A DNA stretch of 64,000 nucleotides from Eledone cirrhosa (taxonomy: Eukaryota): assembly GCA_964016885.1 (NCBI GenBank), contig OZ024741.1:226858001-226922000 (forward strand), written 5' to 3'. The stretch's first letter is position 1; every line of letters begins with the position of its first letter. Below the pieces are notes generated by a model that worked only from the letters and a program-made list of their open reading frames with translations, did no database searches and was not told the origin of the DNA. Below are positions 147 through 26,113 of the stretch, one piece after another. A program made the translations under genes and the position numbers.

Positions 147-544
147 TTATTTATTTATTTATTTATTTACGTAGACCACGGACCATATGCGCATAAACGC
201 ACCTGTACCGTGTCGAATTTGTGACAGTATTGTCTCTCTCTCTCACTTTCTCCTGTCTATACGAGAGGCAGCACGGTTATACCAGCTCTGGGTCGTAGCT
301 GACCACCAGGCTAAAATCTCCCAGGTTGGCCACAACTTACTTTCCCTATTTTTACACGGTTACTTCTTTCACCTGTGTCTTCCCACGTTGGGATCTGTAC
401 ACTTTTTTCTTCCATTCCTTTCCTATTTTTCCCCCTCTCCCTCTCCCCTCATCTTTTCCCCCCTGTTTTTCCTCCTTTCCCTCTCTTTCCTTTTCTCTCT
501 CCTTTTGTTCTCTCTTTTTTTATTATTAAAAGGCCTCGGGCGCA

Positions 545-618
545 CCCGAACTACACCGATGTCCTGTAATTCAGCGCCGAAACATCGGTTCGGGATACAT
601 TTACAGCTGACGATGGAA
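545..618 (+). ncRNA. Hammerhead-like ribozyme with permuted strand order (III-UH-I / GAAA-III / I-CUGACGA)
   Basis: accgatgt(555-562) pairs with acatcggt(582-589), GUC site at 561-563, ctgtaa(564-569) pairs with ttacag(601-606), GAAA at 579-582, CTGACGA at 607-613. Confidence 0.65.
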
Positions 619-664
619 ACCCCTTTCTTCCTCTCTCCTCCTGTTCCATCCTAACCACCATCCT

Positions 665-768
<104 letters not shown>

Positions 769-2314: not shown

Positions 2315-4510
2315 ATGTTTCTCTTCAAGCAAGGTCTGGATCACTGGATCATTTTCATCGAACCAGTCTTTCTTGTCTGGTGAGTTCATCTGGTCAATTC
2401 CATCCAGACCTACAAAGCTGGCAATGGCTGATCCTCCTTCATTTGATGAGGTGGCGAAGGCAATTGCCAAATTAAACAGCGGCAAGTCACCTGGAATGGA
2501 TGGACTGAGTGCCGAGATTTTCAAATGTGCTGGTGATAACTTCTTAAACCGCCTCACTGGTCTCTTTGAGAAGGTTTGGAATGAAGATGATGTCCCACAG
2601 GATTGGAAAGATGCATTGATGGTGGTACTTTACAAAGGAAAGGGAGCCAAAGATGACTGTGGCAACTACAGAGGTATTTCACTGCTATCTGTGGCTGGGA
2701 AGATCTTGTGCAGGATATTGTTGGACAGATTGATACAGCACATTGCTGTTGAGGTACTTCCAGAGTCCCAATGTGGCTTTAGGAATGGCAGAGGCACTGT
2801 TGACATGATCTTCTCGGCCAAACAACTTCAAGAGATATGCATTGAGCAGCGCATGGACTTATACCAAGTTTTTGTCGATCTGACTAAGGCATTTGCCACC
2901 GTTAATGGGGAAGGCTTTGTGAGTTATTTTGGAGAGATTCGGCTGTCCTGAAAAGTTTGTGAACATTCTGAAACTCTTCCACGATGACATGCAGGCAGGG
3001 GTGAATGTTGGAGGTAAACTGTCAGAGCCAATCTCGGTTGAAAATGGTGTCAAGCAGGGTGATATACCTGCACCGACTTTGTTTGCCTTGTATTTCGCGA
3101 TGGTGTTCTTCATGGCCTTCAAGGATCGTCAGCACAGTATCTATCTAACATATCGCACATCCAGCAGGATGTTTAACCTTAGGCGTCTCACTGCCAACAC
3201 TAAGGTACTGAGTACCTTGATCAGAGAATTTTTATATGCAGATGATTGTGATCTCTTTGCACACTCCCAGAGTGGCATGCAACACCTTATGGATTATTTT
3301 TCCAATGCGTGCAGTGCTTTGGGACTGACAATCAGTCTGAAGAAAACTGTCGTCATGTACCAACCTGCTCCGGATATAATTTCAATGAACCCTCTATACA
3401 CGTATACGGTCAAAAGCTGAAAGCTGCTGACACATTTGTGTATTTGGGGAGTTATTATTAGCTATTTGAAAAGATGATGGATTTCGCAACTAACTGCACC
3501 AGGGTTCCTGTTCCTCAGGGAACCACACTATATGGTATACCTGTTGATATAGGTCCAGCCCCTGCTTTCCCGGGTCCTGTTTCTGATCATAATGATCTCT
3601 AGGGATACGGGAATCAGTAGACGGGACCTGGGGGCAGCGATGGGGGACAGGGAATTCTGGGTCATGAGAGTGAGATCCATCATCTCGACAGTAGTCGAAG
3701 TATGATGATGATGATTTGGGGAGTACTCTGAGTGTGACCTGCTCTCTGGATGCAGAAGTTGGTCTGCGTGTTAGTAAGGCAAGTGAGTCATTTGGAAGGC
3801 CCAACCGTCTTTGGTGCAGGCGAGGAATCACAATGAGCACCAAGGTGAGAGTGTATGCTGCATGTGTACTGTCAGCTTTGCTGTATGCATGTGAGACATG
3901 TGTTGCCTACAAACGGCATATCCACAGACTGGAACGGTTTCACCAGCAGTGTCTCAGAAAGATGTTCGGTATCAAGTGGCAGATGCATGTGAGTGATGTT
4001 GAGAGAAGTGAGTGTCGGAGCATTGAGAGTATCACCCACCAACGGTGTTTGCGATGGACCGGACACCTCTGCAGAATGGAGGATGATCGAATCCCAAAAC
4101 AACTCTTGTATGGCGAGCTTTGTGAGGGTAAGAGACCACCTCACAAGCCAAAGCTCCGATTCAAGGATTGTGTAAAGGACTCATTGAAAAAAACTAGTTT
4201 GATGATGGCTGACTGGGAGATAGAAGCTCTTGAAAGAGAAACTTGGCGTGGAATGGTGAATGATGGGGTCCATAATTTTGAGGACAGACGCATAGAGCAC
4301 GAGAAGATCAAACGCGATGTGCGTAAGCAATGTCCTGGTGTATCTCTCGAAACGATCGGTGTCTCCATTGAATGTGCACTGAGTGTGGAAAGATTTGCTT
4401 GAGCAAATCTGGTCTCAGGAGCCACAGTCGCAGCCATGTTCAAAGAGAACCAGTGAAGTATGATCTCCACGGTGTTGTGAGGGTTCACAGGCAATCTTTG
4501 CAGCCATCAT
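2315..4510 (+). mobile_element. RTE-clade LINE, 5'-truncated with 5' inversion; frameshifted RT pseudogene
   Basis: ORFs 2373-2951, 2929-3420 and 3716-4402 carry GKSPGMDG, NYRGISLL, PESQCGFR, FVDLTKAF, GVKQGD, YADD and RWTGHLCRM motifs, C-terminal C2H2 remnant, 24-bp TSD aagtggaaaagaatgaaacgaaat at 2291-2314 and 4529-4552. Confidence 0.92.
3453..3713 (+). mobile_element. Nested insertion: 3' end of another RTE-group LINE
   Basis: TSD atttggggagt at 3442-3452 and 3714-3724, (tga)n tail, residual frame MISRDTGISRRDLGAAMGDREFW. Confidence 0.75.
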
Positions 4511-16582: not shown

Positions 16583-17688
16583 TAAAATTAGTCCTTCATC
16601 AGTGACCTTCCAACCTTCATTGTTATTTCATCGCTTTAAAAATCATATACCTCTGGTTGGTGCGAGCAATAACTAAATAAAGTTATTCGGTCAAGTAAAA
16701 TAGCGTGAAGCGAGCGAGACATGTAAACAAACAAACATGGTATTGCAACGGAAAGATAGGAAGAGACAAGTACATGATATCTATAAGCTTAAGCTTGGTG
16801 AATTCATGGACGAGAGATACAGGCCATCCGACAGGGGGTGAGATGTGAGCGAGAAAAGGATTTCACACAGGTCAAACTGGAGGAAGTGAGAGAGGTGGAG
16901 AAGCAGAGAGTGAATGAGTGGAAGTGTTAGGAAGAGGCCAGCCGAGAGAGAGTGTGACTGGCAGAGGGGGTAAAAAGAAGGTGAGAGATACAGAGAGAGG
17001 GGAAGCAGAAAGAAAGAAACAGACAATCGCAGCTGAGGAAAAAATATCTTTCCGTTGCAATACCATCTTTGTTTGTTTACATGTCTCGCTCGCTTCACGC
17101 TATTTTACTTGTCCCAATAACTTTATTTAGTTATTGCTCGCACCAACCAGAGGTATATGAATTTTAAAGCGATGAAATACCAATGAAGGTTGGAAGATCA
17201 CTGATGAAGGACAAATTTTATTCATATGTAACCCATGTGCAACCACGCAGCACTCCATTTTCCTTATATTTATATTTTTTCCTCAGCTGCGATTGTCTGT
17301 TTCTTTCTTACTGCTTCCTCTCTCTCTGTATCTCTCACCTTCTTTTTACCCCCCTGCCAGTCACACTCTCTCTCGGCTGGCCTCTTCCTCACACTTCCAC
17401 TCACTCACTCTCTGCTTCTCCCCCTCTCTCACTTCCTCCCGTTTGACCTGTGTGAAACCCTTTTCTCGCTCACATCTCACCCATGAATTCACCAAGCTTG
17501 TCTCTTCCTATCTTTCCGTTGCAATACCATCTTTGTTTGTTTACATGTCTCGCTCGCTTCACTCTATTTTACTTGTCCCAATAACTTTATTTAGTTATTG
17601 CTCGCACCAACCAGAGGTATATGATTTTTAAAGCGATGAAATACCAATGAAGGTTGGAAGATCACTGATGAAGGACTAATGTTATTCA
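16580..17688. mobile_element. Non-coding tandem plus inverted element (family F1, 464-nt period) with permuted hammerheads
   Basis: Minus arm 16580-~17045, plus-strand tandem with 17047 repeated at 17511, (TA)n on both sides. Confidence 0.75.
17607..17676 (+). ncRNA. Permuted-order hammerhead (copies 16591-16660 -, 17143-17212 +)
   Basis: ccaacc-aga-ggtaT-A-tgatttt-taaagcgat-GAAA-tacc-aatgaa-ggttgg-aagatca-CTGATGA-aggac. Confidence 0.72.
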
Positions 17689-17710: not shown

Positions 17711-17912
17711 ACGAAGGAAATGTGGTAAGGAACCAGGTGGACCATAACGCACCAAAGTACTCAATACTTAGGGTAGTAGAGTGGGTAATAGGAACGAGTG
17801 GGACCCCGACGGCTGAGCTCAAGCCGTTTCGACGGCTAGTTGTGGACTCAATTAGCCATCCAGAATTAGCCGTCGAAACGGCTTGAGCTCAGCCGTCGGG
17901 GTCCCACTCGTT

Positions 17913-17914
<2 letters not shown>
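17711..17914. mobile_element. Short fold-back of Naiad-like PLE 3' end (family G)
   Basis: Matches 45937-46065, about 50-bp inverted arms, (TA)n flanks, shorter copy at 18321-18435. Confidence 0.75.
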
Positions 17915-17959
<45 letters not shown>

Positions 17960-25045: not shown

Positions 25046-26113
25046 ATGATAATAATGGAGCTGCGGCGTTGCAAATGGGTTACATATGAAAAAGTAAGTC
25101 CTTCATCAGTGACCCTCCAATCGTCCTAGGCATTTCATCGCTTTAAGGGCCATATACCTCAGGTTGGTGCGAACAACGGCTAAAAAAAGTCGCTGGGACA
25201 CGTAAATAAAGGGGACGTTAGGGTGAACAAACAAAATGGTTTAAGCAACAGAAAGTGAGAAGAAAGAGACAAGTCCCAGATTTCTATGAATATAAACTCG
25301 GTGAAATCGTGAACAAGAGAATAAAGACCATCAAACCTGGTTGAAATGTGAGCAAGGAAGGAATTTCGCACAGGTCTAACGGGGGGAAGAAGAAGGGGTC
25401 TGGTCTGCGAATTCGGTAAACATAAGTTCTGTGAAGTCGCAGACGAGAGAGAGAGAGAGAGAAAAAATTCATACCGGCTTGGCCAAAAGCGCGCGAGAAA
25501 AGAAATCGGACAGGTCAAACGGGAAGAAAGAGGAGGAAAGAGGAGGAGGAGGAGAGGTAGTGACAGAGAATGAGTGAGTGAAAGTTGAGGAGGAGGCTAA
25601 CAGAGAGAGAGAGACTGCTAGAAAGGGTAAAGATACAAAGAACGAAACAGACGGGTGGCAGCAGAGGAAAAAAAAAATATGTGTAAATATGATAATAATG
25701 GAGCTGCGGCGTTGCAAATGGGTTACATATGAAAAAGTAAGTCCTTCATCAGTGACCCTCCAACCGTCCTAGGCATTTCATCGCTTTAAGGGCCATATAC
25801 CTCAGGTTGGTGCGAACAACGGCTAAAAAAAGTCGTTGGGACACGTAGATAAAGGGGACGCTAGGGTGAACAAACAAAATGGTTTAAGCAACAGAAAGTG
25901 AGAAGAAGAGACAAGTCCCAGATTTCTATGAATATAAACTCGGTGAAATCGTGAACAAGAGAATAAAGACCATCAAACCTGGTTGAAATGTGAGCAAGGA
26001 AGGAATTTCGCACAGGTCTAACGAGGGGAAGAAGAAGGGGTCTGGTCTGCGAATTCGGTAAACATAAGTTCTGTGAAGTCGCAGACGAGAGAGAGAGAGA
26101 GAGAGAAAAAAAA

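Follow-up and report, generated by a model that had tools for sequence, protein, structure and literature searches.

Positions 539 to 617 (+) of the window, by which we mean the whole 64,000-nt stretch analysed, carry a conserved four-helix fold around a scrambled hammerhead core, predicted to cut itself after C563 and lying in a tandem repeat that would derive from a Naiad Penelope-like element; to this scheme as a whole we assign a probability of roughly 0.68. That the motif cleaves itself, judged alone and on the modelled core, seems to us quite probable, and most likely it represents a new opening of the SGC/CSG hammerhead class, processing the RNA of a Naiad-derived retrozyme. The chain runs through the stem II 5' strand, the fourth helix, stem III, the cut site, stem I, the stem II 3' strand and GAAA, and then through the second strands of stem III, the fourth helix and stem I, with CUGACGA last:

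536..549 (+), hairpin that may compete by tying up the upstream strand of stem II (sequence, minimum-energy fold)
539..543 (+), upstream 5' strand of stem II, with G539 in the place of G10.1 and paired with C578 (sequence, covariation)
545..550 (+), 5' strand of the fourth helix, apparently the counterpart of the helix that bridges stems I and II in HRIMA-1
551..555 (+), 5-nt bulge on one side only, separating the fourth helix from stem III (sequence)
555..562 (+), stem III strand running to the cleavage site, U562 being U16.1 (site scan, covariation)
563 (+), C17 of the GUC triplet, with the predicted cut 3' of this C (site scan)
564..569 (+), stem I strand after the site (site scan, covariation)
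574..578 (+), 3' strand of stem II, overlapping agcg and immediately 5' of G12 (pairing tests)
579..582 (+), GAAA core block: G12, A13, A14, A15.1 (sequence, site scan)
582..589 (+), stem III partner strand (site scan, covariation)
589..594 (+), 3' strand of the fourth helix (covariation in family F, copy alignment)
601..606 (+), stem I partner strand (site scan, covariation)
607..613 (+), CUGACGA core block, C3 to A9, last in the chain (sequence, site scan)
614..617 (+), N-GGA tail, common to octopus Naiads and to the families found here, whose search patterns demanded GGA

The original prediction described a permuted hammerhead at 545-618, and a check of that sequence found the core words, the GUC site, the 8-bp stem III and the 6-bp stem I where they had been placed. 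A scan of the window for a U-H site followed by GAAA and then by CUGANGA returned four places, with H at 563 (+), 17621 (+), 25796 (-) and 25153 (-); the stems at 563 were again of 8 and 6 bp, and the spacing claimed relative to the family called F was reproduced, the distance from H to GAAA being 15 nt at site 563 and 16 nt in the three family-F copies, and that from GAAA to CUGA 24 and 23 nt. The bases given for the motif were therefore right, but the structure begins at 539 and not at 545, because of two further helices. The 5' strand of stem II lies upstream of stem III: 539-543 pairs with 574-578, and not with the strand after CUGACGA, so that stem II closes beside G12 with G539-C578 and four further pairs. 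Lining up copies revealed the additional fourth helix, 545-550 with 589-594. The bulge at 551-555 can slide, giving a stem III of 8, 7 or 6 bp with a fourth helix of 5, 6 or 7 bp. The four-helix descriptor matched four sites in the window, against one match in 200 shuffled windows. Rfam returned no match at the gathering threshold in the 64,000 nt, and for 231-900 no hammerhead family even with E values up to 5 allowed. We rejected a canonical type I hammerhead built on the GAAA at 616-619, since by eye there is no downstream stem III or site, and no type I fold was seen by eye at 601-640.

Covariation supports the fold. For stems I to III, 171 distinct core matches were reduced to 108 by requiring 3 bp or more in both stem I and stem III, and then to 27 clusters, which, less two truncated or deleted representatives, gave 25 subfamily representatives. 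In these rows, whose relatedness inflates the counts of compensatory change, pairing reaches 85.8% in the upstream stem II, where 4 of the 5 pairs have changed on both sides, stem III is 89.3% paired (4 of 6 pairs compensatory) and stem I 98.6% (6 of 6). This covariation was matched by none of 500 shuffles, and slid partner controls paired at 28-46%. The fourth helix, counted in 16 of the 19 family-F rows of alignment A1, is 92.7% paired with 5 of 6 pairs compensatory, and again no shuffle of 500 did as well; it is also present in the family of the repeat at 231-668, but is not aligned there in register for this count. A selected hammerhead-like fold, with stems turned over around a kept core, had been proposed, and the covariation bears this out. 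The invariance of the core in A1 is itself partly due to construction, since GAAA, CUGANGA, GGA and U16.1 were demanded by the patterns and scripts.

The further suggestion, of an agcg/gga contact standing in for an absent stem II, was not supported, as agcg pairs upstream with the compensatory changes just described. A canonical stem II taken from the strand after CUGANGA-N was tried and discarded (21% of cells paired, no compensatory change). Because the upstream pairing covaries and the downstream one fails, agcg is a strand of stem II and not the partner of gga, for which no covarying partner was found; in other subfamilies agcg varies to TGCA, TGCG, CGCG or ACGT and GGA is constant.

Within the 231-668 repeat family alone (91.9% paired, one compensatory pair) covariation was not above shuffles (113 of 500), there being too little sequence change in it to exceed them. 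A collection of homologues had also been proposed; in copies found by sequence search and not by pattern, the core is kept in 27 of 29, and the core with all four helices in 20 of 29. The strict four-helix descriptor was passed by only 11 of 25 untruncated pattern matches of this family. Contigs (of a kind not stated) from two public runs of one sample showed no core-position variant at 10% or above, and varied within 539-616 at positions 589 and 596 only. Among 87 distinct motifs the site triplet is AUA in 45, GUC in 25, AUC in 16 and GUA in one; N-U-U occurs in none, though the descriptor permitted U.

Concerning folding, the hairpin at 536-549 that had been pointed out can be read in the sequence and also forms in the minimum-energy fold of 530-625; its conservation, however, was not supported, as it is not conserved beyond shuffles in family F and is broken in several sister subfamilies of the 231-668 family. 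Nested folding of 530-625 favours alternatives to the four-helix fold, in one of them with the CUGA block paired, and its z-scores do not stand out. We also observed that 571-575 is complementary to 606-610, a pairing which could lock the CUGA block in an inactive state in the 231-668 repeat family and which was not seen in family F. A crude estimate from helix lengths, ignoring fraying and helix width, leaves an axis gap of 22-37 A to be spanned by a one-nucleotide link, so that the one-molecule fold appears tight.

The window also contains copies of family F, to which the site-563 motif can be compared:

17601..17675 (+), family-F copy with the four-helix wiring and its site at 17621, with a tandem partner at about 17137-17211 (descriptor)
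25742..25816 (-), family-F copy, site 25796 (descriptor)
25099..25173 (-), family-F copy, site 25153, in tandem with 25742-25816 and 643 nt apart from it (descriptor)
16592..16666 (-), partly decayed family-F copy (lining up copies)

A fold-back repeat with a long inverted arm lies directly after the first tandem (17720-17915) and recurs beside many other copies (L002, L005, L008). Elsewhere in the window, at about 2370-3000 (+), a decayed LINE-like reverse transcriptase coding sequence was recognised by eye. The kink-turn consensus has a 3-nt bulge followed by tandem GA/AG; searching the junction of two helices for NNN-GA in one strand combined with GA in the opposite one, we found kink-turn words in 15 of 21 family-F representatives against 0 of 6 for the 231-668 repeat family. 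The six representatives of the latter have a one-sided bulge of 4-5 nt instead, with a stem III of 6-8 bp in four of them. Position 11.1 is frequently unpaired in family F. The motif had been called an independent third type, and this holds in part: the two families do not align outside the motif, and the bulge as opposed to kink-turn words is a real sense in which the site-563 motif is a separate type, but both have the same wiring and spacing as well as the upstream CGC strand and the GGA tail, which argues for common descent with family F.

In the genome searched, an animal genome of 3.0 Gb whose repeats, with their likeness to octopus Naiads, point to a cephalopod as the probable source, a pattern for the 231-668 repeat family had 795 matches, against 26 for a reversed control, and four disjoint general patterns had 9474, 10515, 1680 and 912 matches against 2, 10, 174 and 24 for controls. 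Since some general-pattern matches belong to an unrelated family or to chance, about 20,000 is a fair genome-wide figure. In metagenomes the full fold was present in one of 119 pattern loci (L400; contig Ga0224510_10005327, 3905-4545), which has the split four-helix motif with a GUU site, the same U-GGA tail and stems that bear no relation to those in the window's genome, and which looks like a true homologue; the one weak, G-U-rich match among 121 pattern loci in viral contigs we take as chance. A further tandem family (L088, L123, L127 and L134, for example L123 931-1010 +) made up 11 of the first 100 matches of one general pattern. It has GAAA and then CUGACGA-C-GGA, with GAAAC inside an 11-bp hairpin and no fit for the usual site, and is either another wiring or an inactive relative.

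The repeat that carries the site-563 motif is delimited as follows:

231..668 (+), 5'-truncated copy of the host repeat, lacking the last ~45 nt of the unit (copy alignments)
669..765 (no strand), (CT)n/(TA)n microsatellite on the 3' side of the insert (sequence)

A host element at 171-668 had been proposed; the element exists, but its left edge is at about 231 and not 171: of 29 other copies none extends further left than 228-239, where the alignment of 11 begins, and 166-232 has no counterpart in any other locus fetched. Using 500-660 as a genome query gave 841 candidates, of which 40 were scored, at 92-100% identity. A complete unit measures about 770-840 nt and is 72% pyrimidine, with no ATG open reading frame longer than 73 aa; it is found head to tail at a spacing of 771-804 nt, and inverted 5' copies occur (L018, L020). 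Most copies run into (TA)n and have scattered 5' ends. The 3' end is fixed, at about 150 nt beyond the predicted cut, with 48 of 57 copies stopping within the unit's final 9 nt. There is no pile-up of 5' ends at the cut site (3 of 57 copies start within 5 nt of it), and this was not counted as evidence. The unit aligns over long stretches with five sister subfamilies, and with none of the family-F loci tested outside the motif. In one locus (L026, minus strand) an open Penelope-type reverse transcriptase (RT) frame of more than 400 codons is found beyond the element's 3' end, at a distance of about 130 nt and with (TA)n between it and the repeat, and is a candidate for a mobilising clade other than Naiad. 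Ordinary type I hammerhead repeats with a palindromic stem III loop were seen by eye in the flank of L006 and at L171 4060-4330.

These insertion habits resemble those of Naiads, for which a preference for (TA)n, partial tandems and inversions have been described (Craig et al. 2021, PMC8557442): both have a fixed 3' end, (TA)n at their flanks, partial tandems and inverted copies truncated at the 5' end. Naiads were reported there to be without canonical hammerheads, with only "core" or "half core" words noted. We read by eye the last ~350 nt, or the motif match, of 48 of the 54 Naiad consensus records of that study. In the portions read, the split wiring ends 10 of the 48, from four phyla (Bfor, 3_Chem, Amil, the partly decayed Aacu, Anas, 2_Movir, Plae, Obim, Ovul and Esco), in most of which the upstream strand provides the canonical G10.1-C11.1 pair. 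In Naiad_Ovul the open reading frame is followed by a long 3' UTR and then by the motif, shortly before (TA)n. GGA follows CUGANGA in the octopus Naiads and is absent from the portions read of the cnidarian, ctenophore, acanthocephalan and squid ones, which nevertheless have the upstream helix. Plain type CSG was recognised in 8 of the 48, all from nematodes (Nbra 1-3, Hcon, Hpol, Asuum and two placed by order as Ppac and Parc), and is likely a sister form of the split wiring.

Unlike a Naiad, however, the 231-668 repeat has no open reading frame with an N-terminal GIY-YIG and a C-terminal RT, and the likeness consists of motif wiring and insertion habits. No Naiad-type RT motif was found beside any motif in the loci scanned, and in a search for an autonomous partner one RT pattern had no match and a second only two decayed remnants. 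A protein search for Naiad RT in the genome gave 77 matches; 40 were extended downstream, and the motif followed in sense in none of them. These remnants are old, aligning at about 65-80% in the RT region, while the repeat copies are fairly young, the best of them being 92-97% alike in the motif region. An ORF-less remnant resembling the octopus Naiad motif was noticed in L171. From the shared wiring and insertion habits, in a genome whose Naiad RTs are only old, motif-less remnants (the 40 extended), we infer that the 3' end of a Penelope-like retrotransposon of the Naiad kind probably gave rise to the repeat.

Other Naiad 3' ends showed further features. Naiad-1_Movir and the mussel and clam Naiads have in their 3' ends words that may resemble a twister ribozyme (supplement of PMC8557442), so that one ribozyme class might be exchanged for another among Naiads. 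A different conserved 3' UTR motif, a candidate structured RNA, is found across phyla in oyster, Tegillarca, Pinctada, Naiad-1_Skow and Naiad-1/2_Chem, and the Ptep, Smim and Darwinula consensi have a C run before CUGANGA with helices nearby, possibly a further wiring.

Taken together, we propose that in a head-to-tail transcript the core would fold once per unit, helped by a bend that is likely the sliding 5-nt bulge in the 231-668 repeat family and likely the kink-turn in family F, and would cut after C563. One cut per unit would release RNAs of about 800 nt, probably closed into circles as for type I retrozymes (PMC7229834), which a Penelope-like RT/endonuclease acting in trans might copy into (TA)n. 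Copying would begin about 150 nt downstream of the cut site, close to the fixed 3' end, and would proceed back across the site, so that the template would be an uncut tandem or a re-closed circle.

The same ribozyme could instead be active only as a swapped pair, in which case only tandem transcripts would be cut; this is possible, though we think it rather unlikely. Each copy would then consist of the fourth helix and stem III hairpin, and its flanking arms (the upstream stem II strand on one side, stem I and CUGACGA on the other) would enter the neighbour's loop, which alters the folding step of the proposal above and not its outcome. The tightness of the one-molecule ring, on an estimate that, however, leaves out fraying and helix width, speaks for such a pair, as do the frequent tandem arrangement of the copies and the Acropora Naiads, which by eye look tighter still in the records read, with a 13-bp stem III and links of 0-1 nt; animal type I and minimal PLE hammerheads have moreover been described as acting as dimers (PMC4209133). 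However, the kink-turn words of family F and the one-sided bulge look built for fold-back within one molecule, and single SGC and CSG ribozymes are reported to cut during transcription (PMC10085705). A broader proposition, that the split wiring is the hidden ribozyme of Naiads in several phyla, is a seventh hammerhead wiring, and also cuts only when tandem copies swap arms, thereby counting repeats, releasing retrozyme monomers and sparing single inserts in host transcripts, is speculative and doubtful as a whole.

A structure derived from a hammerhead that no longer cuts, kept as a template or packaging signal for a Penelope-like protein, would explain why the joint between A9 and stem II is broken, why 11.1 is often unpaired in family F and why inserts run through the site with so few starting near it, and it would agree with the Poseidon element, for which hammerhead cleavage was dispensable for insertion in vitro (PMC11167929). 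We nonetheless judge it unlikely: the site triplet is confined to the four forms listed above, and the whole catalytic core is kept in four phyla with stems that, by eye in the Naiad records read, share no sequence. An unpaired base 5' of stem II is also common in PLE hammerheads (PMC4209133), so the joint evidently tolerates change. Still less probable is a reading close to the original prediction, namely an ordinary type SGC hammerhead with a two-pair stem II from the GG after CUGACGA-U, the upstream strand serving as inhibitor or switch and agcg/gga as a tertiary contact. G615-G616 can indeed pair with C578-C577, as in HRIMA-1 with an extra U, and GGA is common to the octopus Naiads read; but this downstream helix has the poor pairing already given, Naiads that lack GGA in the portions read keep the upstream helix, and the published SGC descriptor is not satisfied. 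Finally, chance complementarity in one amplified repeat is barely credible. High copy number does mean amplification, so that copies are not independent, and the 231-668 repeat family shows no excess covariation, but the covariation between families already contradicts it, as do the rarity of matches in shuffled windows and the same wiring with unrelated stems in other phyla and in L400.

We found no published permuted hammerhead in Naiads or in an animal genome, in a literature search that covered subscription journals and supplements thinly, and non-circular hammerhead permutations previously came from environmental RNA or DNA with unnamed hosts (PMC10085705). If the fold cuts, Naiads are no longer the Penelope-like clade without hammerheads, animal genomes can hold tens of thousands of ribozymes missed by Rfam and published descriptors, and the hammerhead core tolerates a strand break where a fixed joint was assumed. 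The site-563 motif offers a short testable construct with natural variants with and without kink-turn words, and the split wiring is a new one for RNA engineering.

Among known systems, animal non-LTR retrozymes share with the 231-668 repeat the non-coding head-to-tail units with one hammerhead in each (PMC7229834), and have been proposed as non-autonomous partners of Penelope-like elements (PMC7229834; bioRxiv 10.64898/2026.07.22.740005). They differ in having type I hammerheads and units mostly of 150-450 nt, against the order S, G, C and about 770-840 nt here; circular RNA has been demonstrated for them (PMC7229834), whereas the present repeat is known from DNA. The part of the bioRxiv preprint covered here uses type I models and does not mention SGC, cephalopods or pseudoknots.

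As a hammerhead, the motif has the CUGANGA, GAAA and NUH core words and, between subfamilies, covarying stems I and III around the site, but the stem II 5' strand does not directly follow CUGANGA. The closest relatives are the SGC hammerheads, HRIMA-1 and its variant (Eckert et al. 2023, PMC10085705), with which it shares the 5'-to-3' order of site, GAAA and CUGANGA, the short link from stem I to stem II, the fourth helix bridging these stems (by covariation in family F) and an extra base after CUGANGA. In HRIMA-1, however, CUGAUGA-U is followed by the 5' strand of stem II and by the partner of the fourth helix. In the site-563 motif both stand at the front, which breaks block C and leaves stem III joined on both strands to the fourth helix. 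That paper places none of its RNAs in the genome of a known organism, one doubtful GCS case aside, while the present motif is genomic and highly repeated. Eckert et al. assumed the joint between A9 and stem II to be uninterruptible, and the published SGC descriptor requires CUGAUGA(U)G with at least two further stem II pairs; compared by eye with 574-578 and 607-617 it does not fit, and it would miss the motif because it demands this joint. Type CSG, of which the same source gives two natural examples, both metagenomic, has the same cyclic strand order as the split wiring, but there CUGANGA is joined to stem II and the opening lies between stem III and the fourth helix, whereas in the split wiring it lies between A9 and stem II. 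The site-563 motif is not type SGC as defined, though on its modelled fold it is predicted to work like one.
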